Shown here piece by piece: positions 1,731-33,684 of a stretch of DNA of 64,000 nucleotides. The notes beneath the pieces are model-generated. The model was not told where the DNA came from, did no database searches, and was given only the letters and a program-made list of their open reading frames with translations. Numbering within the stretch: the first letter of the stretch is position 1; the number at the start of each line of letters is the position of its first letter. Made by a program: the position numbers and the translations under genes. Source of the stretch: a virus; the IMG/VR virus record IMGVR_UViG_3300027741_000030, positions 1-64,000 of that record; one strand, given 5' to 3'.

Positions 1731-1964
1731 GTGTTAAATTTAACAGAAAAAGGAGTTGAAGTCTTTATTAAAAGATTTCAATCAAAAATTCAAGAATCAT
1801 TTTGGAACAACTATGATCTTGTAATTTGGAAAAAAGATAATGGCGGCTATACTGATACAAAAGGTATGTATAGAAAAGATGCTTGGGGTAAGTCAGAAAA
1901 AATTTCTGTCGACCAAAAAGGAATCTGGAAGTTGCCAAAAAAATATGTCAAGTATTTTAAATAG
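1731..1964 (+). CDS. hypothetical phage protein (GTG start)
   Basis: GAAAAGG RBS before GTG at 1731; in frame with ORF 1674..1964. Confidence 0.65.
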   Translation: MLNLTEKGVEVFIKRFQSKIQESFWNNYDLVIWKKDNGGYTDTKGMYRKDAWGKSEKISVDQKGIWKLPKKYVKYFK

Positions 1965-2256
1965 TTTAGGTATAGAAAAAGATAATGTAAAGTGGTGGGA
2001 TCTAGCACTATGTCACGGCATGGATACTGATTTATTTTTTGATAAATATGAGTCTGATATAAATATAGCAAAAAGCATTGATGAAGCTTGTTTATCTTGT
2101 CCAGTGATAAAGTTGTGCTATGACAGTGGTGTAGAAAATTCAGATTATGGAGTTTGGGGTGGAGTTTATTTAGCTTCTGGAGACATAGATAAGTCAAGAA
2201 ATGCACATAAAACAAAAGATGTCTGGAAAAGAATAAAAGAGCAACATGTTTATTGA
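1945..2256 (+). CDS. whiB: WhiB-family Fe-S transcription factor
   Basis: Four Cys (ALC...CLSC...LC) and GVWGG motif; likely start 1945. Confidence 0.92.
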   Translation: MSSILNSLGIEKDNVKWWDLALCHGMDTDLFFDKYESDINIAKSIDEACLSCPVIKLCYDSGVENSDYGVWGGVYLASGDIDKSRNAHKTKDVWKRIKEQHVY

Positions 2257-12806: not shown

Positions 12807-12814
12807 GACTATAA

Positions 12815-16334: not shown

Positions 16335-16348
16335 GGTATAATAGGTTT

Positions 16349-17467: not shown

Positions 17468-17567
17468 TCAACTAATATTATATAGAACTATATTGATCGC
17501 AATTAGTGAAAGCGGCGGCGGTAGAGACCATATTGACAGTACCTGTCATATATACTATAATGTAAGT

Positions 17568-17753
17568 ATGCATGATCATTTATTTCAATTGGACTTGGAC
17601 GGGCAGGTAACCTGCTCTAATTGTCATTGCATGGACGATGAACGGGACAATTCAGGTTCCTATAATGGTAGTAGAGCGGTTTCCGAAACCGATAATGAAG
17701 GTCCGATTCCCTCACCTGAAGCCATGTTCGAGACACAGATAGATTTTGAATAA
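17568..17753 (+). CDS. hypothetical protein (leaderless start at 17568)
   Basis: TATAAT-N6-ATG; in frame with ORF 17445..17753. Confidence 0.5.
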   Translation: MHDHLFQLDLDGQVTCSNCHCMDDERDNSGSYNGSRAVSETDNEGPIPSPEAMFETQIDFE

Positions 17754-18013
17754 TGGCTAAAAAGAAGAAATATAAAGGTATGTCTAGGGCATCAATTGCT
17801 GCTGAAAAACAGAAAAGCTTATCTGATATTGAAAAAACTAGACGTAAGCTTGATGCAATTAAAGGGCGGGAACTGACAAGTATCAGACTTTCAGCCAATG
17901 ATATGATAGAACTTAATAAGGCAATACAAGACCTAGATAAGAATAAAGCTTTGATTGAAGATACATATAAGGGAACCCCTGGACAAAAGGTTTCAACTTG
18001 GACAAGGAAATGA
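17753..18013 (+). CDS. basic hypothetical protein
   Basis: ORF track; TAATG coupling. Confidence 0.6.
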   Translation: MAKKKKYKGMSRASIAAEKQKSLSDIEKTRRKLDAIKGRELTSIRLSANDMIELNKAIQDLDKNKALIEDTYKGTPGQKVSTWTRK

Positions 18014-18341: not shown

Positions 18342-18571
18342 TGTATTGGTCGTATATCTTAGCAGTCATTGGAGTCACAGGGACATTCTTTGTAGGACGC
18401 AAGGTTATATGGGCATGGCTTGTATTACTGGTAAATGAGTGTCTATGGATGATATACGCTATTACTACTAAGCAGTACGGATTTATCCTTGCAGCAATAG
18501 CCTATGGCGCAGTTTATATTAGATCTTACGTTCATTGGTCTAAAGAGCCTGTAAATGAGATTCACTTATGA
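18341..18571 (+). CDS. PnuC-like small membrane protein
   Basis: Three short TM helices, W-rich, QYGF motif. Confidence 0.6.
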   Translation: MYWSYILAVIGVTGTFFVGRKVIWAWLVLLVNECLWMIYAITTKQYGFILAAIAYGAVYIRSYVHWSKEPVNEIHL

Positions 18572-18781
18572 AGAAAATGATGATAGCTGATTTGATCAAA
18601 GCATCTGAAATGCCAGAACCTGGTGATTCAGAGGATGCAGGGATAGAGAATGATCTCAATACAGCAGGATATTCTACAGGCAAATGGTCAGATGACGATG
18701 ATATGCATCCTACAATAACTCCTCTATTTGGACCAAATAGGTAGCTAACTCCTATATCCCCCTCCCAATTATCTCCTCTTA

Positions 18782-19218
18782 TATAGCCCTTAGAAGGCTT
18801 ATATAGTGGAGTAAAGTGGAGCATAGTGGAGAATTTATACTCTAGATTCATATCAATATACTATAGTTATATCTATCTAAACATATCTATGTAATTGAGC
18901 ATACCCCATCATAAACGTAATGTCAATAGGACAATTCGGACATATATAGCAGCATATTGATCCATATTTGTCAATAAATTTTATGAGGAATTTTGATCTA
19001 TTTTGCCATATTCTCTACAGATTTGTCGACATTCTATAATGATTATATATTTAATTAGACATATTTTGTAGCATTTTCAGGGATTTTTGTCAAGCTTTCG
19101 TAAATAGAAAATTTGGCCCTAGCTTTCAGGGATTTTGATTAATTGGTCGTAAATAGAAAAATTTGCCCTCATGCTCACACACAAAAAATCCACAGGATGT
19201 GGATAACCCTGTGGATAA
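18782..19218. other. non-coding junction: 10-bp-period AGTGGAG repeats, AT-rich tract, tandem spaced motifs and DnaA boxes (candidate origin or genome-end/injection signal)
   Basis: ATAGTGGAGT-AAAGTGGAGC-ATAGTGGAGA; TGTGGATAA at 19198 and 19210; convergent strand switch. Confidence 0.5.
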
Positions 19219-19273
19219 TTTGGGCTAGATATGTTTATCTATCTAACCAGGCATTCATCTATTCATATATGCC

Positions 19274-19648
19274 TTAATTGAATGGATCTAGTTCTTCACT
19301 CCGCCATCCAAACTTATATGTGGCTTTTGGTTCTTCCCGCTTTTTAACTGTATAAGAACGAGAGGGTAACTTAAGATTATTTAAGTTGTTATCTTGCTGA
19401 TATGATTTAATACATTCATTTAATTCATTAGCAAGAGATAAACCTTCGGTTGATTCACCTCTATTTGAATATACATTATATAACTTTGCTTGCTCTGATA
19501 TAACTGACACAATCATTTCCATAACTCTGTCAATTGTATACAATGGCTGTTCCGCCAAATATCTACCAAAGACTGTCGGATTAAACCAATGGTCATCCAT
19601 TAGATTAACTAATGATTCTGCTACTTTGATTTCAGGTGACTTACTCAT
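19274..19648 (-). CDS. hypothetical phage protein
   Basis: GGAAGG RBS and TGGTATAAT upstream of MSKSPE start. Confidence 0.65.
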   Translation of the reverse strand: MSKSPEIKVAESLVNLMDDHWFNPTVFGRYLAEQPLYTIDRVMEMIVSVISEQAKLYNVYSNRGESTEGLSLANELNECIKSYQQDNNLNNLKLPSRSYTVKKREEPKATYKFGWRSEELDPFN

Positions 19649-19732
19649 ATTCCGCCTTCCGCCTAACTGTCGATTATACCAAAAATAAGAGACGGGGTCA
19701 AGGACCAACGAGCCCCAACCCCGTCCCAAGTT

Positions 19733-19879
19733 TTACTTCGCCTTGTTTGTTACTTCCTTGGTGAAGACAACGCCTGCCTTCTCAGCTTCCGCTAGAGCTA
19801 CCTTAGCTGCTCCTGAGAAACGACCACGTACACCTACTGTAATGCCTTGAGCTTTTAGATATTCACGCTTTGTTGCCAT
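19733..19879 (-). CDS. 48-aa Lsr2-type DNA-binding domain only (not in ORF track)
   Basis: MATKREYLKAQGITVGVRGRFSGAAKVALAEAEK...; RGR AT-hook-like motif; GAAAGGGG RBS; TTTACA-N17-TATAAT promoter; hairpin terminator downstream. Confidence 0.75.
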   Translation of the reverse strand: MATKREYLKAQGITVGVRGRFSGAAKVALAEAEKAGVVFTKEVTNKAK

Positions 19880-20104
19880 TTGTTTATCCCCTTTCAAGAG
19901 ATGATATTTGTTTCAATTATACAAGATATCCACGAATTTGTAAATACCCCCGTAAGACCAAATTTTGGCCCTCAATTTTGATCGCTTAGTTCCATTCTAT
20001 CTTTAATTAATTTAGCAATGATGTTGTGAGCCTCGATGTTTTCTGTTTCGCTGCCACCCCACAAAAGCTTTTGTGCTGTATTTAATTGATCATTGATGTA
20101 CTGA

Positions 20105-20425
20105 TCACTCATCCTCATCCTCGTCATCCTCCTCGTCTTCTTCGAACATTGTGTCAACAATGTAGTCACGATTAGTCATCCATTCAAGGACATCATCTTG
20201 GTGTTGTTCGGCACCATACTCCAAGGAAAACCCTTGCCCAGCCTCTACAGCCTCGCACAGGTGGTCCCACATTTGGTCCTGGGTTACTTTGGCCTTGTAT
20301 GTCTCATCTTCTAGGATGTTGTTAATAGTCGACCAGGTCCAAAGCCATACCATGGACAAGCCGAGGTCGGTGGTATCTAGAATCTCTAGACATTTATTTA
20401 GTTTATCTTTATCTTCAGGCTTCAT
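20105..20425 (-). CDS. acidic hypothetical protein with D/E tail
   Basis: ORF track; GGAG RBS. Confidence 0.65.
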   Translation of the reverse strand: MKPEDKDKLNKCLEILDTTDLGLSMVWLWTWSTINNILEDETYKAKVTQDQMWDHLCEAVEAGQGFSLEYGAEQHQDDVLEWMTNRDYIVDTMFEEDEEDDEDEDE

Positions 20426-20697
20426 AGTGTACGTTCTCCAATCGCAAATGATAGTTGATATGTTAGATTATATATATCTGCTAATGTATCAAGGGCACCT
20501 TCACATCTTGTGCGTTCCATTGAATCCATTGCTTCTTCTGATTCTTCTTCTGTCTCAATAGCGCTAGCCAATTGCTGTTCTGCAATTAGCATGAGGTTCT
20601 TTAGTTCCCCGTGCATTATATCTAATCCACTAACACCGTAGTTGACCAAACGTTGTAAATGGGGCGGGAGCCCAATGTCTTCATTATTCATTATCAT
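20422..20697 (-). CDS. acidic hypothetical protein
   Basis: AACGAAAGG leader; motif promoter at 20718. Confidence 0.65.
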   Translation of the reverse strand: MIMNNEDIGLPPHLQRLVNYGVSGLDIMHGELKNLMLIAEQQLASAIETEEESEEAMDSMERTRCEGALDTLADIYNLTYQLSFAIGERTL

Positions 20698-21010
20698 ACC
20701 TTTCGTTAGTAGAGTTCATTATATCAGTAGCCACTGACAACAAATGTTCTGTTGCTATAATTTGTCCTTTAATATTATCTATCTTAGAACCATCATAGTC
20801 TCTAGTGTTTAAGTATTCATCATAGAATTTATCATAGTCCTGGTTAAGACTAATTAGATGTATGTTCATATACTCTAGGAATTTAGAAGACTTTGTTTCT
20901 ATTTTATTATATTCCTCTTGGTCACATCTATAGCATGTAACATTTTCATCCTCCGTATAAAGCATTCCTGCCCCACAGGAGGCACACCATGATTGGTCAC
21001 GCATTCCCAT
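20684..21010 (-). CDS. zinc-ribbon hypothetical protein
   Basis: CASC...CYRC; GGGAG RBS; motif promoter at 21041. Confidence 0.65.
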   Translation of the reverse strand: MGMRDQSWCASCGAGMLYTEDENVTCYRCDQEEYNKIETKSSKFLEYMNIHLISLNQDYDKFYDEYLNTRDYDGSKIDNIKGQIIATEHLLSVATDIMNSTNERYDNE

Positions 21011-21118
21011 AATAATACTCTCCCGTTTCTCTATTGAAGTATCTTACCATAGAGCACTGACATGTAAAAATTCCAGGGACATCTGAACACTCCCAGTAAT
21101 GCTGACATTTAGCCCCCA

Positions 21119-21292
21119 TTATTCAAAATACCCTTCTGCCCATAGGCCTTGCATAAAACTGACAGCCATTTCTAAATCATTCCTTAGTTCTGTCTTATCC
21201 ATTAAATCGGACGGGGTCCTAAGATAAAAAAGCTTTGCGTCATGTACAGCATTAATCATCTTGTTTAGATCGGATTCAGTATAACCTAACAT
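21119..21292 (-). CDS. hypothetical 57-aa protein
   Basis: MLGYTESDLNKMINAV...; GAGG RBS; coupled to neighbours. Confidence 0.55.
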   Translation of the reverse strand: MLGYTESDLNKMINAVHDAKLFYLRTPSDLMDKTELRNDLEMAVSFMQGLWAEGYFE

Positions 21293-21444
21293 TATGCAAC
21301 CTCATATTCATGTAAGTAGTTTAAGACATTGTGAATAATACAATCACAATCTTCTCCGCCCATATTATCCATAAATTCTAAGTGACTAGAATTATCTTCA
21401 TAGATAATAGTAATTACTTTATCAAATAGTTCTATATTGCTCAT
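21292..21444 (-). CDS. hypothetical 50-aa acidic protein
   Basis: MSNIELFDKVITIIYEDN...CDCYIH; GGAGG RBS. Confidence 0.55.
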   Translation of the reverse strand: MSNIELFDKVITIIYEDNSSHLEFMDNMGGEDCDCIIHNVLNYLHEYEVA

Positions 21445-22217
21445 GCCTCCACCTTTTCTTTAGGCTCTAATAATACACTATGGGTCTGACATTTTGCCAT
21501 TGCCTCTTCATCTTGCCAAGAGCCTTGATTACAGTTTGAGCAGAATTCACCGCAGTCATCTTCGCAATAACTCAATGTATCGTAAGACTGGCAAGCATAG
21601 CAACGGTTCTCCCATTCAGCCAATTCTTTTACTTCACCACGGACAATCTCATATTCTCCACCCCAACCTGTCTCTTCCTCAAACTCTAATGTAAGCAGGC
21701 AGTTGGGAACAAGATTACTTAGTTTAGTTAAGATAGTTACAGCAGGTGACCAAGCAGTTTCATATTTGTAGACAAGCCAGTTGTCATCACCTTCTGATTT
21801 GTATTCAAGCAATTCTGTTTCAGGATATTCATCTTCATCACGGACAGCAACATCCCACTTAGTTCCCCAGTTAGATGTATTCCACGAATACCAATCTTTT
21901 TGAGTCTTAGCAAACTCAACAGACTTGCGGAACCAATCAGGGTCATTCTGAATATCATAGTTGCCACGAGAAGGTTGGCAGGCATATTCCTCATCAGTAA
22001 TACCGTCATCCTTATATGAGTGGATGTTATGAAAAGCAAACACAGGATTATTATATTCAACTAATTTAATTTTGGTGGGGAAACCCGAAGAACTAATATC
22101 ACCCATACCATATGTCTCTTGTGCTAATGTAAAAGGCTTATTCAATCTATCTTTAATCATATCTACCTCAGACTTAGGTCCTTGGATAGTTAATGTGTTA
22201 TATACCCAATTTGGCAT
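21441..22217 (-). CDS. DUF1281/YubB ferredoxin-like domain protein with C-terminal Cys cluster
   Basis: MPNWVYN, WYSWN..NWGTKWD, ETAWSP motifs. Confidence 0.8.
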   Translation of the reverse strand: MPNWVYNTLTIQGPKSEVDMIKDRLNKPFTLAQETYGMGDISSSGFPTKIKLVEYNNPVFAFHNIHSYKDDGITDEEYACQPSRGNYDIQNDPDWFRKSVEFAKTQKDWYSWNTSNWGTKWDVAVRDEDEYPETELLEYKSEGDDNWLVYKYETAWSPAVTILTKLSNLVPNCLLTLEFEEETGWGGEYEIVRGEVKELAEWENRCYACQSYDTLSYCEDDCGEFCSNCNQGSWQDEEAMAKCQTHSVLLEPKEKVEA

Positions 22218-22392
22218 TTTATATCCTTTCGTTGATATGGCTTAATTATACAATGGACCACTGACATTTGGGAAGAGTATATCGTGTGATACACACCACA
22301 TCCTCCAAGCTATGTGGTCAAGATCACAGAATTTTCAGGGATTTTATATTGACATCGTAAACAAAATAATATACCCTCAGTCTTTTGCGGGC

Positions 22393-22427
22393 AAAATAAA
22401 AACCCCCCAAGCTATAAGCTGGGGGGT
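22393..22427 (-). terminator. intrinsic terminator
   Basis: ACCCCCCAGC-TTATA-GCTTGGGGGGT followed by TTTTATTTT on - strand. Confidence 0.8.
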
Positions 22428-22543
22428 ATGAATATGGCTGCTGATTTCCAACGAAAGAAATAAACCGCTTTACTTAGCGCCTGGCCCGCAGACTAGTTAG
22501 ACGCACCATTTCATTTCTATATTAAAACCAGGACCAAGGTCCT
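22393..22543 (-). ncRNA. candidate ~150-nt trans-acting sRNA antisense to the shared early-gene RBS
   Basis: TGGTATAAT promoter (22558-22550); 5' hairpin AGGAC-CUUG-GUCCU; seed UUUAUUUCUUUCGUUGG; C6/G6 terminator plus U tract; only tiny ORFs. Confidence 0.6.
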
Positions 22544-22550
22544 ACATTAA

Positions 22551-22919
22551 TTATACCATACTTAGTTGACTGGAATACTTATCCACGAATGCCTCAAGGC
22601 TCGTACTAAATACAACTGTCTGCAGGTCTTCTTCCATTAGAGTAAACGTTTTGTTTTTCCAATCGATAATAGGTACCTTGTGCTCATTGTCTGATAACTC
22701 ATTAACTGTAATGCCCCAACCTGTTTCGCTGGACCACTCATCCCCAATTAAATTAGATATACATATACGTGTTGCATATGCTTCGTCATTCCATCGAGGC
22801 TTTGCTTTAAGAACACAGTCTGCTAAATTCTCTAGCATTCTGTGGCCCGCCCAATGACCGTATAGAAATACAACATTCTCATTGGATTGTCTAAATCCAA
22901 AGTTTGCTCTGTCTCCCAT
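22551..22919 (-). CDS. hypothetical phage protein (MGDRAN... type)
   Basis: ORF track; AAGGCGG RBS. Confidence 0.7.
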   Translation of the reverse strand: MGDRANFGFRQSNENVVFLYGHWAGHRMLENLADCVLKAKPRWNDEAYATRICISNLIGDEWSSETGWGITVNELSDNEHKVPIIDWKNKTFTLMEEDLQTVVFSTSLEAFVDKYSSQLSMV

Positions 22920-22920
22920 T

Positions 22921-23112
22921 TTATTCCGCCTTTGTTAGTTGTTGTTCCTGCTCGTTGTTGAGCAATTGTACCATCTCATGGGCCCAGTCCACAAGTGGCC
23001 CGCCATGGTGAGCTTTATGATGTCCGCAAAAATAAAGAGACATCTCATCTTTCTTTGCTTCCCACATAGCTTGCGCCGCACATTGGTCACACTTAAGCCA
23101 TTCAGACATCAT
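22921..23112 (-). CDS. small zinc-finger protein (CxxC...CxHH)
   Basis: CDQCAAQA...FCGHH. Confidence 0.65.
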   Translation of the reverse strand: MMSEWLKCDQCAAQAMWEAKKDEMSLYFCGHHKAHHGGPLVDWAHEMVQLLNNEQEQQLTKAE

Positions 23113-23263
23113 AGGTTTCCACCTTCAATCATTTCAGAAAGACGATCAAGGATCCAAGAATCAATGTCAGCGATATCAATCTCTGCTAACTTCTCCATAA
23201 TTTCTTCACGAGCAAACTTATACCCGTCTTGAAAACCATCTTTATAGTCTGACATTTTATCTC

Positions 23264-23467
23264 CTAGTATCCTGTCGCTTCTTTGTCTGACCAGTATGAT
23301 TCTTTTAAATTATACTTATCACGAATGCGACTTACTTTCTCAATACTACCAGTTCCAATGTTGAAAGTCAATGGTGGCATAAACTCAGGGTCAAGTCCCA
23401 TAATTTGTGCATCCCAATAAGCCATCTCAAGAGATAGCCTATCGGGAGCAGTTAACTCAAAGTACAT
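23264..23467 (-). CDS. hypothetical protein
   Basis: ORF track; GAGG RBS. Confidence 0.6.
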   Translation of the reverse strand: MYFELTAPDRLSLEMAYWDAQIMGLDPEFMPPLTFNIGTGSIEKVSRIRDKYNLKESYWSDKEATGY

Positions 23468-24099
23468 TATGCCTCACGCACATTACATACTTCGGTGTCA
23501 TTGATTTCAATGTTACCGTTATTTGAATCGGCATAAAGAGCATCGTAGACTTCTGACTCAAGGTCTAACTCATAATCATTCTCAAGAATGTTATATGTAT
23601 ATGTTCCGCTAACTTCAAGAGTTGCAGTAAACAGAACTTCCTTGATTAGTTCAATGCCAAGCGCTTCGGCAATTGCACGGAGTGTATCTTTATCCTCTGA
23701 ATCTTCATATGCTTCACAGATAATTTCTTTAGCCGCATCAATGTTAGATAATAGAGTAGTTACACGCTTCTGTGATTGACGTCCATTGTGCAAATCCCAT
23801 TCAAGAGATGCGACTTTATCAGTTGCATATTCTGCATCTGAGTAACCACGGATTACTTTGTAGGTAACCAATAAGTTAGCATTGTACGTATCAGGAACTG
23901 TTACTGCAGGTGTTGTTGTCTCTTCCATTTTTTCCTCTTTCGTTTGGTTTGAAGGTGAAATTGTAGCATCTTCCACTGACAAATAGGCAGTGTTTCCACC
24001 GCATTCGCATGTGACATTAATCACATCCCTGGTTGATGTATATTCAATTAATGCATCACATGTATGGCATACATGTGTATATTTATTCCAAGTTGTCAT
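23467..24099 (-). CDS. hypothetical protein with N-terminal zinc ribbon; second in-frame start at 23928
   Basis: Leaderless ATG 6 nt after -10 at 24106; internal promoter 23960 and AACGAAAGAGG RBS before MEETT. Confidence 0.65.
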   Translation of the reverse strand: MTTWNKYTHVCHTCDALIEYTSTRDVINVTCECGGNTAYLSVEDATISPSNQTKEEKMEETTTPAVTVPDTYNANLLVTYKVIRGYSDAEYATDKVASLEWDLHNGRQSQKRVTTLLSNIDAAKEIICEAYEDSEDKDTLRAIAEALGIELIKEVLFTATLEVSGTYTYNILENDYELDLESEVYDALYADSNNGNIEINDTEVCNVREA

Positions 24100-24203
24100 G
24101 CGAGTATTGTACACTAGGCCACTGACATTTACAAGGATATTCCAGGGATTTTTTTTGTGATTCGTAACACAAAAAATTTGCCTTTGCCTGTGCGGGCATT
24201 TTG

Positions 24204-24277
24204 CGACCCATATCGGACTTGAACCGACGGCCTCTACCGTGACAGGGTAGCGCTCTAACCAACTGAGCTAATGGATC
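24204..24277 (-). tRNA. tRNA-Asp(GTC)
   Basis: Acceptor GATCCAT/ATGGGTC; CTACC-CTGTCAC-GGTAG; TTCAAGT T loop. Confidence 0.93.
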
Positions 24278-24288
24278 AAGAAAAAATG

Positions 24289-24317
24289 TGAGCAGTTTTA
24301 AATCTTGCTCAGGATTT
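24289..24317 (-). ncRNA. small H-type pseudoknot motif (copy 1)
   Basis: AAAUC-CUGAGCAA-GAUUU-AAAAC-UGCUCA. Confidence 0.5.
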
Positions 24318-24324
24318 TTTTTAA

Positions 24325-25329
24325 TTAAAACGCAGAAACTAATTTCTTAATTTTATTTTTTTCTGCGGTAAGAACTGGGTCAAACCCTGATGCACCAGCC
24401 ATAAGAGTTTCGCCATTGCCACGTCCTGAACGATAATAATCTAAACGCTCAGTTAGTGCATTGAACGCACCCCACTTTGTGCCTTTGATATTAGCGTTAG
24501 TTGGTGAATTATGATAAAGGTCATCAAGAAGAACGACTTTGTTTTCCCACTTCTTGATTGCGCCCTTAGCATCTTTTTCAGGCTTAGGATAGATTGTCTG
24601 AATCAACTTAGAGAATTCAGCATCGGTGATTGATTGAGAATAAAGGGCTTGAGCCTCTTTTTCAAATTCATCAAAGTATCCGAGAGCAAGACCGAGAGTC
24701 TCACGAGCAACAGCGATGCGACCTTCAACAGATTGGGTGTGACGAATTTTGAAAGATTGCTTTGCATTACGCATTGCAAGATTCAATGTGTTTTGGCAAA
24801 CTACACGAACAGGTGTGACGGCTGCTTGAACAGCAACAGAACCATCGTGTGATGTCCAGACAATGAGATAAAGTTTTGTCTCATCGTTAGCGCCTTGTGG
24901 GTCTAATACCATTGTGCGGGGAATATCGACAGTGCCGAAAACAACTTTACCCTTTTTCAATGAGCCAGCAGATTCCCAACGGCAATCAGCATTAGCATCG
25001 TGAATTGCATCAGCGAATGCAAATAATTCTTCATTCTGCACAGGCTTGTAACGCTTGCCGACAGTTGCGAGAACATCTACGCCCTTATTAAATGGGTTAT
25101 CACGAATGACAAGAGATGCGGTAGAAACATCATTCCAAGATTCTGGAATGTGCTCAGTGATTGGAGATAAACGAACATTCCAATTTGCTAACTTTGCCTC
25201 TTCAAGCATTGTAGCGGTTGTAACTTCCTCATCTTGTGTAAAGATTCGGTTAGCGAGATTGTGCCAAGCAGGAGCGCCACGAAGCGCAAATGCAACTTCG
25301 CCATTTTCCATTTCTAGATTATGAGCCAT
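24325..25329 (-). CDS. DUF932 / TIGR03299 phage-plasmid protein
   Basis: MAH...PAWH.L, Y..VQN, TSHDGS, TPVRVVCQNTL, IRHT, GTKWGAFNA.TE. Confidence 0.88.
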   Translation of the reverse strand: MAHNLEMENGEVAFALRGAPAWHNLANRIFTQDEEVTTATMLEEAKLANWNVRLSPITEHIPESWNDVSTASLVIRDNPFNKGVDVLATVGKRYKPVQNEELFAFADAIHDANADCRWESAGSLKKGKVVFGTVDIPRTMVLDPQGANDETKLYLIVWTSHDGSVAVQAAVTPVRVVCQNTLNLAMRNAKQSFKIRHTQSVEGRIAVARETLGLALGYFDEFEKEAQALYSQSITDAEFSKLIQTIYPKPEKDAKGAIKKWENKVVLLDDLYHNSPTNANIKGTKWGAFNALTERLDYYRSGRGNGETLMAGASGFDPVLTAEKNKIKKLVSAF

Positions 25330-25555
25330 TTTTATTTCCTTTCGTTTGATTGTTGATGCAAGTATAACAGGTGGCACTGACATTGTCTAGATTAGTTAGT
25401 CATTTGTCCGAATTGATCCGTGTGATTAATTTCACAAAATTTTCAGGGTTTTCCACAACTGTGCGTAAACCTGTGGATAACCCCATACCTGTGCGGGCTT
25501 CCCGCACCATCAACTGGAGCTAGCAGCGCTAACCCCAGTTGATCGATGTGGTTGT

Positions 25556-25777
25556 TTATGAATTTATTTTTGCAACAGTGTCTTCATTTAAAAACATTGC
25601 TGTTGTTTTCTTTTTCTTTTGCATGTCAAATACGTAAGCATTTACTTTTCCGCTAAAACGGCGGATGTTAGAGAACACCAACTCTGTTAAGTGCTCTTTA
25701 TCTACACCTTGCTCTGAATAAATAGTTACATCATTTGCTTTGTTTGCGTCATAGATTTCAACTCTAAAGCGAGCCAT
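25556..25777 (-). CDS. hypothetical protein
   Basis: ORF track; AAAGG RBS. Confidence 0.65.
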   Translation of the reverse strand: MARFRVEIYDANKANDVTIYSEQGVDKEHLTELVFSNIRRFSGKVNAYVFDMQKKKKTTAMFLNEDTVAKINS

Positions 25778-25809
25778 TGTATTACCTTTGTTAGTAGTTT
25801 CCCGAAGAA

Positions 25810-25836
25810 GAGCAGTTTGGCGACATACTCAGGTCG
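25810..25836 (-). ncRNA. small H-type pseudoknot motif (copy 2)
   Basis: CGAC-CUGAGUAU-GUCG-CCAAAC-UGCUC. Confidence 0.5.
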
Positions 25837-25845
25837 TTTATTTAT

Positions 25846-26262
25846 TTAGAGATACTTAGCAATTTGCTTCATTGTAGAAGCATTTACTGTTTCCTCATCT
25901 GTCATCTTGAGAATTGTGAGAGCATTTGTGATGTCCTCTTTCATTTCACGATAACTGTGCTGATGAATTGTCTCAAAATCTTTTTGAGGTTCAGCAGGAA
26001 AGTTTCCTTCCTTTGTGATGATGTCAAAATCAACATTGAGAGTGTTGTTCCAAGAACGATAGTTTGTGCGAAGGTTCTCAGCCTTTGAGAAGTTGGCAAT
26101 AGCCCACTTACCGATTTCCTTGCGCCACGCTTCTACCGCTTTGGTGTGCTTTGCTTCTTTTGCTTCTTGTGTTGCGTAATTAGTTTCTAACTCAGCAAGG
26201 CGAGCCTCTAGTGCCTTGATTACTTTTGGTGTTGCCACCTTTACTGTTATTGCTCTACTCAT
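25846..26262 (-). CDS. hypothetical phage protein
   Basis: CCAACGAAAGG leader; motif promoter 26294. Confidence 0.75.
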   Translation of the reverse strand: MSRAITVKVATPKVIKALEARLAELETNYATQEAKEAKHTKAVEAWRKEIGKWAIANFSKAENLRTNYRSWNNTLNVDFDIITKEGNFPAEPQKDFETIHQHSYREMKEDITNALTILKMTDEETVNASTMKQIAKYL

Positions 26263-26394
26263 TTGTTTCCTTTCGTTGGTTGGTTGTTAGAGTATTGTAT
26301 CAGACGGGTCTGACATTTCCCCGAAGGGAGAGAGTTTTTACTTACGACATTGGGCTAGAACACTCTCTGAAACTGCCCCTGTTTCGCTAGTTGA

Positions 26395-26571
26395 TTAGAC
26401 TAGGCTTGCGTTGCTAACTGTTGTCCAACGAGTTTCCTTTGTTGGCATTTCTAGCAACACTCTCACCGAGCCAGATGAGTTAGGAATAATCTCTTTGATT
26501 ACTCCTGTCTTTTTTGACTTTAAGGTTGTGAATAAATCGCCAACCTTGTATGTGTATCCATTTACTGTCAT
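26395..26571 (-). CDS. small SH3/KOW-like hypothetical protein
   Basis: YKVGDLF..G.I.EI; GAAAGG RBS; motif promoter 26598. Confidence 0.6.
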   Translation of the reverse strand: MTVNGYTYKVGDLFTTLKSKKTGVIKEIIPNSSGSVRVLLEMPTKETRWTTVSNASLV

Positions 26572-26664
26572 TTTGCTTCCTTTCTGTTTAGGGTTGTAGT
26601 ATAGCATTGGGGTCTGACATTAGTCTAGCCCTATCTCATTATTTGAGAAAGTTATTGTGTGACC

Positions 26665-26931
26665 TTAGTCACTTTCAGGTAGCCAAGCGTCTAAGTGGTG
26701 AGCATCAACTATTGCAGACGCAGGGCAGGAAGTCTGTCCTCGCCAAGTGATACCTTCAGGTAAATTGATCTCACGGCTGTATTCCTCATCATAGAACGCA
26801 TCAATAGCATCTATGCAAGGTTGCACCATTGATACGGGAACGGGTGGGTAATGATTACCTTGTAAGTGATAAGCAAGTCCTGCCTCTAGTGATAGTTCAT
26901 CTGCAAGTCCTAGTGCTGTTGTGTATCCCAT
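26665..26931 (-). CDS. hypothetical phage protein
   Basis: HLQGNHYPPVP...HHLDAW. Confidence 0.7.
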   Translation of the reverse strand: MGYTTALGLADELSLEAGLAYHLQGNHYPPVPVSMVQPCIDAIDAFYDEEYSREINLPEGITWRGQTSCPASAIVDAHHLDAWLPESD

Positions 26932-27137
26932 TATGCCACCACCTTTAGAATTGCGTATGAACCGCCTGCATTAATTTCATCTATTGCAGGCTGAATTGCT
27001 GGTACGATTAATTCTTTTAGCATTCCTTCTAGCATAGCAATTTGCTCTTTTGCTTCTAGTGCAAGAAAACGCTGTGAGATTGGATGTGTTTCGTCAAACT
27101 CTGTTACGAATTTGAGAGAGTGTTCGACTTTGGTCAT
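26931..27137 (-). CDS. hypothetical protein
   Basis: CAACGAAAGG leader; motif promoter 27167. Confidence 0.65.
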   Translation of the reverse strand: MTKVEHSLKFVTEFDETHPISQRFLALEAKEQIAMLEGMLKELIVPAIQPAIDEINAGGSYAILKVVA

Positions 27138-27422
27138 TTGTTACCTTTCGTTGTTGGAATAAGAGTATTGTACCGCAGGCTACTGACATTACCTAATCTA
27201 TTATCGGCGTGTCGCAGCTTTTGTGAGATTAATCACAAAATTCCAGGGGTTGTGGATAAGTATCGTAAGCCTGTGGATAAACCCTCACCTATGCGGGCGA
27301 GCTGCATATTTATGCGTTACTCTGCATTTTTATTTTTATGTTTGATCTTGCGATTATATTTTTTTTTATTGCGAACAGGTTGCGCCGCATTACTGCGACG
27401 CAATTCCTGAATGCGTTTAACT

Positions 27423-27614
27423 TTATCTTGAAGAGAAGTTAGGAACATGATATCCACTCGCTTCATGAAATTTATTTACATCAAAGTTAGGATTTTCATT
27501 TGCAAACATAACCGCAAAATCATTTACTGTTTTAGAAAAAACAGCGGGATGAATTTTATCGCTCATGAATTTAAGAATTTCTGCAGTTGCTTCAAAGTGC
27601 TTTCGTGTCATCAT
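27423..27614 (-). CDS. hypothetical phage protein (MTRKHF...NPNFD..KF type)
   Basis: ORF track. Confidence 0.65.
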   Translation of the reverse strand: MMTRKHFEATAEILKFMSDKIHPAVFSKTVNDFAVMFANENPNFDVNKFHEASGYHVPNFSSR

Positions 27615-27811
27615 TTTGCGGATACCAATCCAATTCTATTAAAGTTTTTAGTATACATTTTGCCAGTTGGCATTTCTAAATTATAAGTTGCTAATTCTTT
27701 AGCGAACCCAACATCATAACATTTTGCAAATGCTTCAAATGCTTGCAAAGCATCTGCAAATTGGTGAGTAAATTCTAAATTTCCGTCATAGTAAGTAAAT
27801 AGTTTATACAT
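27611..27811 (-). CDS. hypothetical protein
   Basis: GAGG RBS before MYKLF. Confidence 0.6.
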   Translation of the reverse strand: MYKLFTYYDGNLEFTHQFADALQAFEAFAKCYDVGFAKELATYNLEMPTGKMYTKNFNRIGLVSAK

Positions 27812-28110
27812 TAGCAACCTCTTTCCATTCGAAACAATAAGAGTCAGAAACAAAAGGATTTTTCTTTACAACCTCATCAAATAAAGATAACGCTTGATTT
27901 TCGTCCTCTGCGTCTATGTCTAGCCAAACGCCAAATGTGTATTTATTCATTAGTCATTTTCTCCATTCAAAAATAGTGAGCCGTCATTTACACAATCGCA
28001 AGGCTCTACATCATAATTTCTTTCGTCTCCGAAAAAAACAAATCCTGCGCCACCGCATTCATCGCAATTCGCTGCGATTATTTCTATGTATTCTTTTATT
28101 TTGCTCATTA

Positions 28111-28326
28111 TTATTCACCAACCTTTACTGCGATTGTGCGATAAGTTCTGCGACCCCAAGTGTTAGAGCCACTATTAGGCGCAACCTCGACAAGATAGGT
28201 ATCGCAACCCTCATACCAAATTGGCTGAGGGTGTTTTTCCGCTGAAATAATTTCACCGATTAGAGTAGATGAGCGATAGGTTTTTCCTACAAGTAGGTTT
28301 TCGATTGTGTAGATGTTTGCTGACAT
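28111..28326 (-). CDS. hypothetical protein
   Basis: CAACGAAAGG leader; motif promoter 28358. Confidence 0.65.
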   Translation of the reverse strand: MSANIYTIENLLVGKTYRSSTLIGEIISAEKHPQPIWYEGCDTYLVEVAPNSGSNTWGRRTYRTIAVKVGE

Positions 28327-29190
28327 TTTGTCCGCCTTTCGTTGTTGATATACGGATATTATAGCGGATAGGACTGACAAAGTGTTAATTTTGCAAGGGT
28401 TTGTCTCAATATGTGGAGCGTGGGCTATGTGATAAACATCACATAAAAATGTCCGATTTGTCTGTCAAACCGACACGCCGTAAATTTTCAGGGTTTTTAT
28501 AACAGTTCCGTAACGACACGCCCGACCCCGTGCCTATGCGGGCCAGCTTGACATTGTCAAGCCGACACGCCGTTTATTCTTTGTTATCTTGCTCACATAC
28601 GCATCTAGTGTAAGCACCCGCATTAAGACGATCACATTTAGGGCAGGTATAAAATCCGCTAGGGTTAGCCATTAGTTTAACCCGTTTTCTTTTATGTCTT
28701 TGATTACGGCAATTAGTAGCGGGATAGTTAAGCCCGCTAGTAGTAATTGGACGGCGGTAGTTAGTAGGCGATTAGTAGTCATTACTTATTCTTCTTTCTC
28801 TTATAAATCTTATAGGCGATTACCACTAGGGCGGTTAGTGTTATTAGTTTCCAATCTAGTGCGACATAGAACCAATCGCTATCTAGACATATACCATAGT
28901 CATTTATTTCTAATGTCATTACATCTCAACCTTTCGCATATGTGCTACAACATTTTTAGAAACCTTTTGTAGGTCTGCTACGACCTTATTCATTTCATCG
29001 GCGCTAGTTGCCTTAAAGTCAACGCCTAGTAGTTGTGCGCCGTCCCATATTGAGTAAGTGATAGTCATTTATAGTGCTCCTTCTTGTAGTAGTGCTATCT
29101 CGATGTCTAGTTGTATTGTATCGGGTAGGTCTGACAAATCAACCCAACCCGCTCCTTCGTTATCCATTATGAACGCTTTTACATATCCCA

Positions 29191-29373
29191 TTACGCTACC
29201 TCTGACATCTCTGCTAGTAGTGCGTCTACTTGCTCATCTGTTAGTTCATCTTCTAATTCTTCATCTTCTACATCTACCTCTTCATCTAGGTAAGCGTATT
29301 GGTCGGCTACATCTTCCTGAATAGTGTCCCACTTAGAGAGGCTATTAGTGCGTGTGTTGTATGCGTATGACAT
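29191..29373 (-). CDS. highly acidic 60-aa protein
   Basis: D/E-rich; AACGAAAG leader. Confidence 0.7.
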   Translation of the reverse strand: MSYAYNTRTNSLSKWDTIQEDVADQYAYLDEEVDVEDEELEDELTDEQVDALLAEMSEVA

Positions 29374-29407
29374 TTATTTCTTCTTTCGTTAGTTGGTTAT
29401 TTGGTTG

Positions 29408-29461
29408 AGAGCGATTATTTGCTAGGCTCACCTTTCGGATTATTTGCTAGGCTCACGCTCT
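29408..29461 (-). repeat. 19-bp direct repeat pair enclosed in a hairpin (structured 5' leader)
   Basis: GATTATTTGCTAGGCTCAC at 29413 and 29438; flanked by AGAGCG/CGCTCT. Confidence 0.8.
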
Positions 29462-29548
29462 AATTCTTTATTTATTTGTATGTCGTAAGACTATCACGAC
29501 CTACTGACATTTAGCCTAATTTAGGGCTAGTGTCGTGTGTGAGTTACC

Positions 29549-29656
29549 TCACATCTCCGCTATATTAGCCTCGTGATAGGCGAGAGTAATTTCCTCGCCG
29601 AATTCGGATACTAGGTCGTTATAGACCTCGTCTTGATAGTTAAGATAATCGTTCAT
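29549..29656 (-). CDS. 35-aa acidic microprotein, first gene of the inverted block
   Basis: MNDYLNYQDEVYNDLVSEFGEEITLAYHEANIAEM; GAAAGG RBS; motif promoter 29706. Confidence 0.55.
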   Translation of the reverse strand: MNDYLNYQDEVYNDLVSEFGEEITLAYHEANIAEM

Positions 29657-29926
29657 TAGATTACCGCCTTTCTTAGTAAGACTTTCTTACTTTCTTTATA
29701 CCTTAAGCATAGCAAGGGGGACTGACATTTAGACCCCTATTCTCGGGCGTGTCTAAATAAATCTTAGAATAATCGTGTGATCTCCACCACAATCACGCTC
29801 ATTATGGGCGGTCTATCCATTTTGTCCGATTTTGATTTATATGTGTATCGTGCAAATTAAAAATTTATTAACATTTTTTGAAATCTGAACGGCTGGTCAA
29901 CTAAAAATAAATGGTAAACTTATAAT

Positions 29927-30460
29927 ATGATAAATTATTTAACTGAAGATAAGCGTGTTTGGGAAATAGAAAATTTTCTTTCTGAAGAAGAGCTATCAAG
30001 ATTTGATTATCATATAAAAAAAACAGAATGGGTAACTCAAGAAAAATGGGAGAATGTTACATATAAAAATAACACTTCAATTTTTCCAGATGTTAAATTT
30101 ATAATAGACAGAACTGCTGATGCAACTGATCATAAATATTCATGGAGCAGCATGGGCATTATAATGAGAATCCAACCTGGTATGTATTTAAGTCCGCATG
30201 TTGATAATTACAATAATCCTGATTCTGATTTAACAAAAAATTGGCTCTCGGCACATATTTATCTAAATGATAATTTTGATGGAGGCGAACTTTATTATGC
30301 AAATTTAAATATTAAATACAAGCCTAAACGTGGTTCCATAGTCTTTCATCCTGGGTTTGAAGATATTTATATGCATGGCGTGAAAAAAGTTGTTGGTTCA
30401 GATAGATACGCAATAGGATTAGTTGGAAAAAGCTTGACATCAAAAATACATTTAGTATAA
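29927..30460 (+). CDS. 2OG-Fe(II) oxygenase
   Basis: HVD, YLNDNFDGGE, HGV, RY. Confidence 0.85.
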   Translation: MINYLTEDKRVWEIENFLSEEELSRFDYHIKKTEWVTQEKWENVTYKNNTSIFPDVKFIIDRTADATDHKYSWSSMGIIMRIQPGMYLSPHVDNYNNPDSDLTKNWLSAHIYLNDNFDGGELYYANLNIKYKPKRGSIVFHPGFEDIYMHGVKKVVGSDRYAIGLVGKSLTSKIHLV

Positions 30461-30518
30461 TTTTCTAGGGGGGTCGGGGGGTCAGTAAATCAATAATATT
30501 TAAATATATTATATATAT

Positions 30519-30543
30519 AAGACCTAAGACCTAAGACCTAAGA
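30519..30543 (+). repeat. 7-bp tandem repeat (AAGACCT) x3.5
   Basis: Visible in intergenic DNA after G-runs GGGGGGTCGGGGGGTC. Confidence 0.75.
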
Positions 30544-30574
30544 TCAAGTGATACATGGAATGGTACAATAAAGT

Positions 30575-31246
30575 ATGAAAACTGTACATCTTATTGGTGA
30601 TTGTCATTCAACTAGAGTCTGGGAACACTGGAATCCTGAAACATGTCCCGTAGACTTTAAAGTATGGGGTGTAGCTGGAATGACAGCTTATGCATTTGAT
30701 CCAGTAAAATTTGAAGAAGAAAAAATGGAATCAAGCGGCATAGAAAGTCAAAGTGATTACCTTAATAAACCAAGAGAGTACTGGGTAAAACCGTTTAATG
30801 AATTTAAATCACCAGACCTGGTTTTAGTTTGGCTAGGATATGTCGATATTAGACAATGGCTTCCAAAGCATAAAAATACCGAAGAAATTACTATAAAGTA
30901 TCTTGATCGTATACGTGAATACTATAAGGATTCTGTTATACAGATTATTGAACCCCTCCCACAATTCACTGAAATGCTTTTAAAGTACGAGGGCATCTCT
31001 CCAAGTTATACTTATGAGGAAAGACAAAACATTAACAATATTTTTATAGATACACTAAATAAGTATGCAAAAGAACACGGAATGATTGCACCAGTTACTC
31101 AGAAAGAAATTAAAGATGCAGTTGGACTTAACGAGTTTACACCTGAAGATTGTGCAACATGGGCTCCTCACCCACAAGATTCACTAAAAAGAGAATATTG
31201 GGCAAAAATTTATAATTTATTTATAAAGAAAACAAAGGTGATATAA
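30575..31246 (+). CDS. SGNH/GDSL-like fold hypothetical protein
   Basis: LIGDCHS and WLGYVDIR blocks. Confidence 0.5.
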   Translation: MKTVHLIGDCHSTRVWEHWNPETCPVDFKVWGVAGMTAYAFDPVKFEEEKMESSGIESQSDYLNKPREYWVKPFNEFKSPDLVLVWLGYVDIRQWLPKHKNTEEITIKYLDRIREYYKDSVIQIIEPLPQFTEMLLKYEGISPSYTYEERQNINNIFIDTLNKYAKEHGMIAPVTQKEIKDAVGLNEFTPEDCATWAPHPQDSLKREYWAKIYNLFIKKTKVI

Positions 31247-31918
31247 ATGGGAATGCAAGATATTAAATTTCAAGAAACAACAGGAAAAACAATTAAGGTT
31301 ATAGCTCCTATGGGTTCTGGATGTGTTTTGTTTTCTAAATTCTTAAATCATATTTGTGAAAATGTTAATATAAAATCTGGATACCATGAAACAGATGAGT
31401 GGTTTGGTAGAAATAATCCAACTATGATGGACGAAGAAAATCTTTTTGTTTATATTTTAAGAGATCCAATTGATTCAATAACTGAAAGCGTAAAAGTTTT
31501 AATGAATTTTAAAGATGATTATGCAACTAGATTTCAAGATCCTCATCACCTATTACAATCAATTAATATTGCAAAACCAAAATGGCATGATATGTTTATG
31601 AAATCAAAAGAAAAAGAACAAGAAAATAGTTTTAAAATTATTTACGAATCAATGTTTATAAATTCAGATAAAATGATTAAACAATTTGTAAAATTTTTTG
31701 ATTTAACTTTAAATGAAAATTATTTTTCTTCAATTACTGCAAAAGATGTTTATTCAAAAATGGAAAAAACAGGATACTCATTTTGGATACCAGATAATCA
31801 AATTTCTAAATATACTATAGTTGATGATGCAGTTCGTAATGATGAAGAAATAAAAGAAATGCAAAAACAATATCTTGAGTATAAAAAAGAGATAGAGTTT
31901 TATGATTATAAATTCTAA
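31247..31918 (+). CDS. sulfotransferase-like P-loop protein
   Basis: APMGSG; ILRDPIDS; IIYE. Confidence 0.6.
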   Translation: MGMQDIKFQETTGKTIKVIAPMGSGCVLFSKFLNHICENVNIKSGYHETDEWFGRNNPTMMDEENLFVYILRDPIDSITESVKVLMNFKDDYATRFQDPHHLLQSINIAKPKWHDMFMKSKEKEQENSFKIIYESMFINSDKMIKQFVKFFDLTLNENYFSSITAKDVYSKMEKTGYSFWIPDNQISKYTIVDDAVRNDEEIKEMQKQYLEYKKEIEFYDYKF

Positions 31919-32489
31919 TCCTGGATCAGGAAACACTTTTTGCAGCGTATTATTAGAAGAAGCTTTGGGTTATTGGGTTGAAACAAAACATCAGCCACAC
32001 ATATTAAATGAAAAAATAAATCAAATTACTTTATTTAGAAATCCATATGATTCAGTATTGTCTTCTTTAGAAAGACATTTTCAAGATTTGCATCCAGACT
32101 TAAAACCCTTTGATTTAAATAATCAAGACGAAGTAAAAAATAATGTAAAACAATATGTTAGATTGTATAATATATATTTAGACGATTATCAAAAAGACTA
32201 TATCTATCCTGTAACTTATGAGCATTTAAGAAACAACCCAATGATATTTGTAAAATCTATTGCAAATTTTTTTGATTTAAAAATAATTAATGAAGATATT
32301 AATGAAGATAAAATTGTAAAAAAAATAATTAATACTCAAAATTTTTTTGAACATAGAAAAAAAAGATTAGCGCCAGTAAAAGAAAGAGAAGCTTTAATAA
32401 AAATTTTAAAATTAGATAATTCTTTAAAGCAACTTTATGAAAGATATTGTCAACATAAAGAAATTTTGCAAAATGTCCATAACAATTAA
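31902..32489 (+). CDS. sulfotransferase-like P-loop protein
   Basis: SNPGSGNT; FRNPYDSVLS; VTYEHL..NP. Confidence 0.65.
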   Translation: MIINSNPGSGNTFCSVLLEEALGYWVETKHQPHILNEKINQITLFRNPYDSVLSSLERHFQDLHPDLKPFDLNNQDEVKNNVKQYVRLYNIYLDDYQKDYIYPVTYEHLRNNPMIFVKSIANFFDLKIINEDINEDKIVKKIINTQNFFEHRKKRLAPVKEREALIKILKLDNSLKQLYERYCQHKEILQNVHNN

Positions 32490-33081
32490 TTCCCCAGAAG
32501 GATCTGGAAATATTTTTGCAAAAACAGCTTTGCTTGATATAGATTGTCCAACAAATGTTATACATAACTATGAGCTTTTGAATTCAGGAGGAAATAATAT
32601 TTTTATATTAAGGAATCCATATGATTGCATATTATCAGCAATTGAGTTACCATTTTTAGGCAATAAATATTTATCAAGACAATTTAATATAGATGATAAT
32701 AAAACAGATCAAGAAATAAATAGACATATTGAACAATATTTAAATTATTTAAAGAATTATAAAAATAAAAAAGTTTATGCAGTAACATTTGAATTTTTAA
32801 CTAACAACCCTAAACAATTTGTAGAAAATGTTACATCAAGGTTTAACAGAAAAATTGATAAAAATAAACTTGATCTTATTTCAGAAGAATCTGTTATAAA
32901 AAAGTTAATAGAAAAAAATCCACATAGAGCTCCATTTAGAGATGACAACCCAAGACAAAAAATATCTATTAGAGAAGAAATAAAAACATTTTTAAATGAA
33001 GACAAAAGAATGAAAGATTTGTACCCTATTTATCTACAACATAAGAATATATTGCAGTCAACTAAAAATATGGTACAATAG
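32473..33081 (+). CDS. sulfotransferase-like P-loop protein
   Basis: SPEGSGN; LRNPYDCILS; VTFEFL..NP. Confidence 0.65.
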   Translation: MSITINSPEGSGNIFAKTALLDIDCPTNVIHNYELLNSGGNNIFILRNPYDCILSAIELPFLGNKYLSRQFNIDDNKTDQEINRHIEQYLNYLKNYKNKKVYAVTFEFLTNNPKQFVENVTSRFNRKIDKNKLDLISEESVIKKLIEKNPHRAPFRDDNPRQKISIREEIKTFLNEDKRMKDLYPIYLQHKNILQSTKNMVQ

Positions 33082-33211
33082 ATTTATGAAATGTGACTTT
33101 TGCGAAAATCCAAAATATGTAGAGCGTATTAACGCTAAAGGCATACTTGAAAGTTTTTGCACCAATTGCATAGAAAAATTAGTGGCGGGAAACCGAATAC
33201 GCTAGTCCCAA

Positions 33212-33286
33212 GGGGATATAGCTTAATCTGGTTAAAGCACTTGTCTTATATACAATAGATTCTGGGTTCAAATCCCAGTATCCCTA
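33212..33286 (+). tRNA. tRNA-Ile(TAT)
   Basis: Acceptor GGGGATA/TATCCCT; TTGT-CTTATAT-ACAA anticodon arm; CTGGG-TTCAAAT-CCCAG. Confidence 0.85.
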
Positions 33287-33684
33287 CAATGGAGTAGAAT
33301 ATGAATAACAACGTAATAGTACCTGATGAATGGCCAAGACATAAAAAAATTAAATTTTTGGGCATAACATTAGTTGCTATAATTTTAATATTAGTAATTT
33401 CAATTTAGGAGTTATATGAATTGGCTTCAAGCATCAATAATATTTGTACCAATGATAATTGCTATCATTGCATACCTAACTGGTAATATATAAAGCAGTT
33501 GACTAGGATATATATGAAGAAGATATGGGCATTAGTAAGTACAATTGCGATAGCAATCCTTTCAGGAGTTGCCTTGTCTAAATTTTTAAATTGGGCGGGA
33601 CAAAAAGAAATCTTTGATTTCGACCTAGATGAAGATATAGATAATGAAGACTTCTAAACTATATAGGTCAATACTCTGGCTATC

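Follow-up and report, generated by a model that had tools for sequence, protein, structure and literature searches.

To our knowledge, the activator PafBC and the promoter box that it reads have been described only as a DNA-damage circuit that belongs to the actinobacterial host itself. Promoters carrying this box are also called RecA-NDp promoters, and their older consensus is tTGTCRgtg-8nt-TAnnnT. In its more recent form the motif is given as tGTCgg(N10)tA(N3)T, with its 5' part at positions -23 to -28 of promoters that have no -35 element and with a GTC triplet that two PafB arginines contact and that is conserved across actinobacteria; promoters of this type are not recognised by RNA polymerase (RNAP) with SigA alone (PMC8635444), and PafBC is activated by short single-stranded DNA (ssDNA) (PMC11804915). 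Streptomyces, too, possesses RecA-NDp promoters (PMC5087735). A viral parallel is found in the middle promoters of phage T4, where a MotA box at -30 takes the place of the -35 element, set a short and constant number of bases from a normal -10, and AsiA and MotA together appropriate the sigma factor, a likeness to PafBC promoters that PMC8635444 itself points out. Here we describe a run of 14 promoter-like sites with a PafBC-like box in viral DNA from lakes. The stretch analysed (hereafter the window) is 64,000 nucleotides long and comprises bases 1-64000 of IMG/VR record IMGVR_UViG_3300027741_000030, a genome of 115,655 bp and 35.6% GC that CheckV rates as complete and that is contained in sequencing runs from freshwater metagenomes.

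An exact pattern search of the window found TGTCAG-N10-TAnnnT 14 times, always on the minus strand and all between 20718 and 29727, when dinucleotide-preserving shuffles (n = 100) averaged 0.77 copies, with at most 4 in any one, and 14 was reached in 0 of 100. Nine of the 14 sites contain AATGTCAG and seven contain TGTCAGTG. Read along the minus strand, they share one layout, in which an A-rich tract is followed by TGTCAG, a spacer whose start is rich in G+C, often a TGn, the hexamer TAyAAT and a short leader with ACGAAAGG before the ATG. The distance from the end of the -10 to the start codon is 25-31 nt at ten sites, 46-49 nt at two, and 6 nt and 115 nt at one each; at four sites (24106, 23960, 21470 and 20718) an open frame runs across the promoter. 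The 14 sites are real, conserved and co-oriented promoter-like cassettes, each of them ahead of a gene start. The mRNA from the promoter at 24106 is probably leaderless, because its ATG lies so close behind the -10. The gene that it precedes has two in-frame starts, of which the one at 24099 yields a long form of 210 aa with a Cys-rich N-terminus and the one at 23928 a form of 153 aa by way of the internal promoter at 23960. The 115-nt leader of the promoter at 29488 (29373-29488) contains a direct repeat, GAGCCTAGCAAATAATC, in two copies. Outside the window's cluster, the other 105 kb of the genome hold a single further copy of the pattern, on the plus strand at 93318-93339, directly before a homologue of the BillNye single-strand DNA-binding protein gene and upstream of DnaE.

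The box is conserved well beyond this genome. Across 80 related contigs (1.32 Mb) it occurs 1152 times in the direction of the genes and 7 times on the opposite strand, with 364 distinct 22-mers; the hexamer is TGTCAG in 1088 copies and TGTCGG in 64, position 5 being only A or G. To avoid circularity, a second search was blind to the hexamer and used the extended -10 and the leader alone: TGTCAG or TGTCGG stood at N10 in 152 of the 330 distinct sites so recovered, and every other hexamer was present six times or fewer. In a set of 1159 distinct promoters, the positions that the pattern leaves free favour A/T before the box, A or T (W) at +6 in 93% and G or C (S) at +7 and +8 in 94% each, in a genome of 36% GC; the G of a TGn extended -10 is present in 78%, and the positions of a -35 element carry no more than 0.39 bit. 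Within the window only 6 of the 14 sites reach even four of six matches to TTGACA, and a sigma-70-type scan is not clearly enriched (57 matches, 40.9 expected, standard deviation 8.0). The lake lineages G001, G002, G003, G004 and G005 have 9-25 co-oriented copies each, some of them TGTCGG, and the 25 copies in G001 are of the type TGTCAGTGG-N7-TAtAAT. Compared gene by gene, G001 and G003 are much more distant in their core (capsid 35%, DnaB 39%, ribonucleotide reductase (RNR) 29%), such that in core genes this phage is closer to Streptomyces phages than to either. These distances do not separate a host reader of the box from a phage reader, because either would be explained by a single gain or loss, and RecA-NDp promoters exist in Streptomyces as well.

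A first-pass annotation, made from the letters alone, had listed 14 co-oriented copies as rare by chance, each upstream of a gene start and several inside the preceding open reading frame (ORF), and all of its coordinates proved exact. It had assigned ordinary promoters to the plus-strand genes, where canonical TTGACA/TATAAT and TGnTAnAAT promoters are indeed found, and the scan of the full genome and of related phages that it proposed returned the one extra copy and the strand bias given above. Missing from it were the extended -10 in most of the promoters, the helically phased CRP-like sites described below, and the GC content of the window, which at 30-40% is far below that of cultured actinobacteria.

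The identification of the phage box with that of PafBC, made in the same annotation, holds up at each position that defines the class: the phage box equals tGTCgg(N10)tA(N3)T, with a GTC-containing hexamer in 14 of 14 sites, a ten-base spacer to TAnnnT and no -35 consensus. A comparison with host genes was obtained by scanning metagenome contigs for TGTCAG-N10-TAnnnT, then 10-40 nt, an ATG and the RecA motif FGKGxxM at the right distance. This recovered 114 contigs, with fewer than 10 expected by chance on a rough estimate; 112 of them encode RecA N-termini, 88 with a strict actinobacterial N-terminus (50 distinct promoters among them) and about 9 more with a close variant. Ten of the 88 lie on contigs of 44-50% GC; one contig of 44% GC has a recA-recX neighbourhood in actinobacterial gene order, judged by ORF sizes alone, and its RecA is nearest to Atlas clusters labelled Actinomycetota. 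In 67 distinct actinobacterial recA promoters (40-nt windows, close variant included), the three positions past the hexamer are W in 87%, S in 97% and S in 97%, and the sequence before it is A-rich. The phage and recA promoters thus agree at positions fixed by neither search, which gives a separate line of evidence for one kind of protein reading both sets.

Set beside the PafBC promoters of Mycobacterium and other actinobacteria, the phage sites thus share TGTCRG with its conserved GTC, the N10 spacer, TAnnnT and the absence of a -35 (PMC8635444, PMC11804915), and they share with the 67 recA promoters the W-S-S after the hexamer and the A before it. They differ in what stands behind the box, which is small genes of no known function instead of repair genes, and in their density of 14 copies in 9 kb. 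At the -10 they have TAyAAT preceded by the TG of an extended -10, while host recA has a TAGCGT-like hexamer and no TG; about 60% of the phage promoters, unlike those of host recA, also carry a phased CRP-like palindrome. Two further metagenome contigs of 32-34% GC, L284 and L325, have a recA preceded by TGTCAGTAAGGAG..TA..AT; they may come from marine streamlined actinobacteria with the same box, or may be chance matches that overlap the ribosome-binding site.

The palindromes in question have the form TGTGA-N6-TCACA (at most one mismatch) and number 12 in the window, 11 of them in the same leftward block as the boxes, when 2.7 are expected. Ten of the 11 sit 26-56 nt upstream of a TGTCAG box, nine of those ten in a 10-bp register, and the remaining one, at 28582, lies about 210 nt from the nearest box. 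Among relatives, 62% of 895 distinct promoters have a palindrome no more than 130 nt upstream, and the spacing, measured between its centre and the T of TGTCAG, has peaks at 26, 36, 46 and 56 nt. Such a placement on a single helical face is that of class I CRP/GlxR promoters, from which the phage arrangement differs in pairing the palindrome with a -26 element in place of the -35; by their sequence these are candidate CRP sites.

Because the phage encodes WhiB and its core proteins are closest to those of Streptomyces phages, we regard it as a lake actinophage. Its nearest cultured relatives are Streptomyces phages of the Stanwilliamsviridae (57% identity in DnaE, 55-60% in the capsid protein, 62-65% in DnaB), to which the class II RNR (59-66%), the portal and the terminase are likewise closest, and the host is probably a low-GC actinobacterium. 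A gammaproteobacterial host, as for a T5-like phage, had come to mind from the low GC, the CRP-like sites and the DnaA-box-like word TTATCCACA, and was dropped given WhiB and the kinship with Streptomyces phages. Homologue searches with WhiB and glutathione peroxidase returned phage relatives only and no host, and an Atlas look-up of the phage SDR gene gave no host information. A WhiB 78% identical to that of the phage lies on JBBALJ010000051.1, a 23-kb contig of a GenBank metagenome-assembled genome named 'Bacteroidia bacterium'; this is probably a phage contig misbinned into that genome.

What the boxes precede can be read from the cultured relatives. The genome of the Streptomyces phage Paradiddles (Samistivirus, Stanwilliamsviridae) ends on the right in a second copy of its first 10,778 bp (offset 122,708), and this repeat holds leftward small genes. 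Both phages have the same gene order, with WhiB, plus-strand genes, a leftward block that includes DUF932, and then RNR and the portal; WhiB lies about 8 kb ahead of the right repeat in Paradiddles and 17 kb ahead of the leftward block here, and the DUF932/DUF945 gene at 24325-25329 is 52% identical to a gene in the Paradiddles repeat. Because of this synteny, the block would correspond to the terminal repeat of the relatives, of which the metagenome assembly holds one collapsed copy. Eight related IMG/VR contigs end within 18,644-18,794 of this record; such ends fit a physical genome end or the edge of a terminal repeat, possible readings of which they prove neither. In phages with long terminal repeats, the genes of the repeat are typically expressed first, as is established for T5 and SPO1. 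As the block lies where related Streptomyces phages have their terminal repeat, it is probably the first DNA to be expressed and probably carries genes for host take-over or anti-defence. Metatranscriptome contigs from four runs cover 18.9-29.7 kb and none covers 29728-30500, although contigs cannot give starts, strand or level; one ends in adapter sequence at 29682, which is about 17 nt into the first of the predicted transcripts, and here too assembled contigs cannot show a start. This coverage is compatible with the promoter reading and says nothing stronger.

The Paradiddles repeat also serves as a control. At the homologous position, before leftward small genes that follow WhiB and within a block of about 11 kb, it carries around 15 promoter-leader cassettes whose leader (..ATCGAAAGGGG) is that of the lake phage, but its promoters are ordinary ones, with a -35 TTGnCn placed 17-18 nt from TAGACT, where the lake lineages have a -26 box in place of the -35. 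TGTCRG-N10-TAnnnT itself is no commoner in Paradiddles than chance would have it, and phage BillNye has none. A seeming sister motif in Paradiddles, TGTCCY-N10-TAGACT, was set aside as a CCCT spacer element inside ordinary -35/-10 promoters. Since the homologous block uses ordinary promoters with the same leader, the cassettes appear to be built for host polymerase, which would work unaided in the soil relatives, and the comparison supports a reading by host machinery. In the lake phage, the distal part of the block has three canonical -35/-10 promoters, of the forms TTTACA-17-TATAAT, TTGACC-17-TATAAT and TTGACA-17-TATGCT, so the block mixes two promoter classes; as the plus-strand genes use canonical promoters as well, the phage has at least two classes.

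Table 1. Positions of the promoter-like sites and associated features in the window.
Feature	Sequence	Coordinates	Strand	Remarks
Promoter 1	TGTCAGTCCCCCTTGCTATGCT	29706..29727	-	First unit of block; ATG 29656
Promoter 2	TGTCAGTAGGTCGTGATAGTCT	29488..29509	-	ATG 29373 after 115-nt leader
Promoter 3	TGTCAGACCTACCCGATACAAT	29115..29136	-	ATG 29068
Promoter 4	TGTCAGTCCTATCCGCTATAAT	28358..28379	-	ATG 28326
Promoter 5	TGTCAGTAGCCTGCGGTACAAT	27167..27188	-	ATG 27137
Promoter 6	TGTCAGACCCCAATGCTATACT	26598..26619	-	ATG 26571
Promoter 7	TGTCAGACCCGTCTGATACAAT	26294..26315	-	ATG 26262; 138-aa protein conserved in all lake lineages
Promoter 8	TGTCAGTGCCACCTGTTATACT	25361..25382	-	ATG 25329; DUF932 protein
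Promoter 9	TGTCAGTGGCCTAGTGTACAAT	24106..24127	-	ATG 24099, 6 nt past -10
Promoter 10	TGTCAGTGGAAGATGCTACAAT	23960..23981	-	Within ORF begun at 24099; in-frame ATG 23928
Promoter 11	TGTCAGTGGTCCATTGTATAAT	22245..22266	-	ATG 22217
Promoter 12	TGTCAGACCCATAGTGTATTAT	21470..21491	-	Within preceding ORF; ATG 21444
Promoter 13	TGTCAGTGCTCTATGGTAAGAT	21041..21062	-	ATG 21010
Promoter 14	TGTCAGTGGCTACTGATATAAT	20718..20739	-	Within preceding ORF; ATG 20691
CRP-like palindromes (11)		22285..29791		At 22285, 22313, 24010, 24156, 25421, 26658, 27222, 28428, 28582, 29538, 29776
Leftward block		18540..29727	-	About 35 small genes and tRNA-Asp; syntenic with 10.8-kb direct terminal repeat of Paradiddles
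Canonical -35/-10 promoters		18898-19944	-	At 19944, 19701 and 18926; distal block part (18.5-20 kb)
WhiB-family gene		1840..2256	+	Above Pfam cut-off; orthologue of Stanwilliamsviridae WhiB; actinobacterial-host marker

Other repeated words and neighbouring genes were noted along the way. The exact DnaA-box-like word TTATCCACA occurs five times on the minus strand of the block (19198, 19210, 25472, 27251 and 27272) and six times in the window, where 0.85 are expected; two of the copies sit within a terminator-like hairpin at 19188-19216. GCCCGCAYAGG is present four times on the minus strand (24187, 25488, 27288 and 28533), always at the start of longer intergenic regions and followed by CCCTGAAAATT-like words, with which it belongs to a repeated upstream module. 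The plus-strand flanks of the block (1-18000 and 29900-36000) are rich in modification enzymes, namely several 2OG-Fe(II) oxygenases, JmjC/cupin proteins, three sulfotransferases, an APS-kinase-like protein, luciferase-like monooxygenases, a glutathione peroxidase, a subtilase and a tryptophan-halogenase-family protein.

Taken together, we consider it fairly probable that the 14 sites are PafBC-type promoters read by host RNAP-SigA through host PafBC, with the extended -10 providing basal strength and the CRP-like sites a second input. Host RNA polymerase with its housekeeping sigma factor would read the boxes with the help of PafBC, a helix-turn-helix (HTH)-WYL activator of the host that would be placed between the DNA and sigma region 4, the arrangement called 'sigma adaptation', and would act once bound to short ssDNA. 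Because the phage promoters combine a near-consensus TAyAAT, an extended -10 TG and phased palindromes, they would probably show a certain basal activity that the ssDNA alarm raises, and they might also respond to cyclic AMP (cAMP)-CRP. The ssDNA signal may come from processed DNA ends, nicks or restriction damage; that incoming DNA switches PafBC on is speculation. A wider proposal is held more tentatively, as possible and no better than that: an abundant lytic lake-phage family may have swapped its terminal-repeat early promoters for the host's ssDNA-alarm promoter with cAMP-CRP sites, so that entering DNA would be transcribed via PafBC sigma adaptation, triggered by ssDNA from entry, end processing or restriction. 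The first-pass annotation had likewise proposed a block driven by host PafBC, and this part of it is supported by the box match, the actinophage identity, the lack of a detectable reader of the phage's own and the low-GC recA boxes with the same flanks; it fares less well against the Streptomyces relatives, which do not have the box.

That last point is among those that weigh against a role for host PafBC. Although Streptomyces possesses RecA-NDp promoters (PMC5087735), the cultured phages closest to this one make no use of the box, and the presence of PafBC in a host is therefore not enough to explain the choice. Unrelated viral contigs gave single matches and no clusters of the box, which is therefore so far confined to one phage family. 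On the host side, a WhiB scan of genome contigs matched only a phage contig binned into a 'Bacteroidia' genome and no host genome, and the recA scan, having required the box, speaks for its existence in low-GC actinobacteria and not for its frequency. Furthermore, with an extended -10 G in 78% of them and a strong -10, the phage promoters might work without an activator, and PafBC, which stays inactive until ssDNA is present, is an awkward choice for genes required from time zero. The confinement to one family and the box-less phages of PafBC-bearing Streptomyces hosts would both suit an activator encoded by the phage or delivered with the virion, which would read TGTCAG and redirect host polymerase as MotA/AsiA do at T4 middle promoters; in that case the block would form a delayed class, and its likeness to PafBC promoters would be a convergence or the mark of a PafB-derived DNA-binding domain that has gone unrecognised. 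The canonical promoters in other parts of the genome could supply this activator first, and two minus-strand proteins, of 63 aa (27423-27614) and 138 aa (25846-26262), are the only ones found in all five divergent lake lineages and absent from both Streptomyces phages; for both, AlphaFold gives confident models (pLDDT 85) with no counterpart among solved (PDB) folds. We nevertheless judge such an activator unlikely. Both co-varying proteins are encoded within the block and stand behind TGTCAG promoters themselves, and a six-frame search of the genome gave no Pfam match to WYL, HTH_PafC, Sigma70_r2 or HTH_Crp_2. The 20 block proteins examined belong to no DNA-binding family and to no informative family apart from DUF932, DUF1281_C and DUF7455; the sole HTH found, in a 47-aa protein (103256-103399), is conserved in Paradiddles and BillNye, and WhiB is likewise common to these two box-less phages. 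Presence of the box is not tracked by any DNA-binding, sigma or WYL family, and while a novel fold is still conceivable, nothing points to a novel phage activator. T4 encodes both of its factors, whereas here domain searches turned up no candidate and the box is that of a host regulon, matching host recA promoters even at free positions, which convergence does not predict.

The strong -10 region raises a different prospect, namely that these are plain extended -10 promoters for the host sigma-A holoenzyme alone and that TGTCAG is an operator, for instance one where a repressor from phage or host silences the block, or some other signal in fixed register. Actinobacterial promoters are commonly without a -35, the TGn G and the TAyAAT hexamer are what such promoters would have, and the block needs shut-off at some point. 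This too seems improbable, and more so than a phage activator, as the invariant hexamer lies exactly where sigma region 4 and PafBC contact DNA, as its R at position 5 and the W-S-S flank are held in common with recA promoters, and as the box is missing from the extended -10 promoters that this genome has on its plus strand. Least credible, and in our view very improbable, is that the boxes are mainly decoys, dozens of copies of which on a replicating genome would titrate PafBC off the DNA-damage and defence genes of the host. The number of copies, 14-25 per genome, would suit this, and PafBC is linked to phage resistance in mycobacteria in work cited by PMC12848934; however, every box keeps register with a good -10, with a ribosome-binding leader and with the start of a gene, as working promoters do, so that titration would be a side effect at most.

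In the literature searched there was no paper that ties PafBC or its box to phage promoters, and none on phage promoters of this class. If host PafBC does read the block, this phage would offer the first known case of a virus run by a host WYL activator, a lead on the interplay of WYL activators and phages, and a phage counterpart of the ssDNA-triggered leading-region genes of conjugative plasmids. More than 1000 natural promoter variants would become available for the study of sigma adaptation, together with compact inducible promoter parts for actinobacteria, and for phages without a cultured host the box would allow host range to be inferred, as actinobacteria with PafBC. For the phages themselves it would mean that a widespread group in lakes senses the ssDNA alarm of its hosts, and probably their cAMP state too, to time the genes with which it takes them over.

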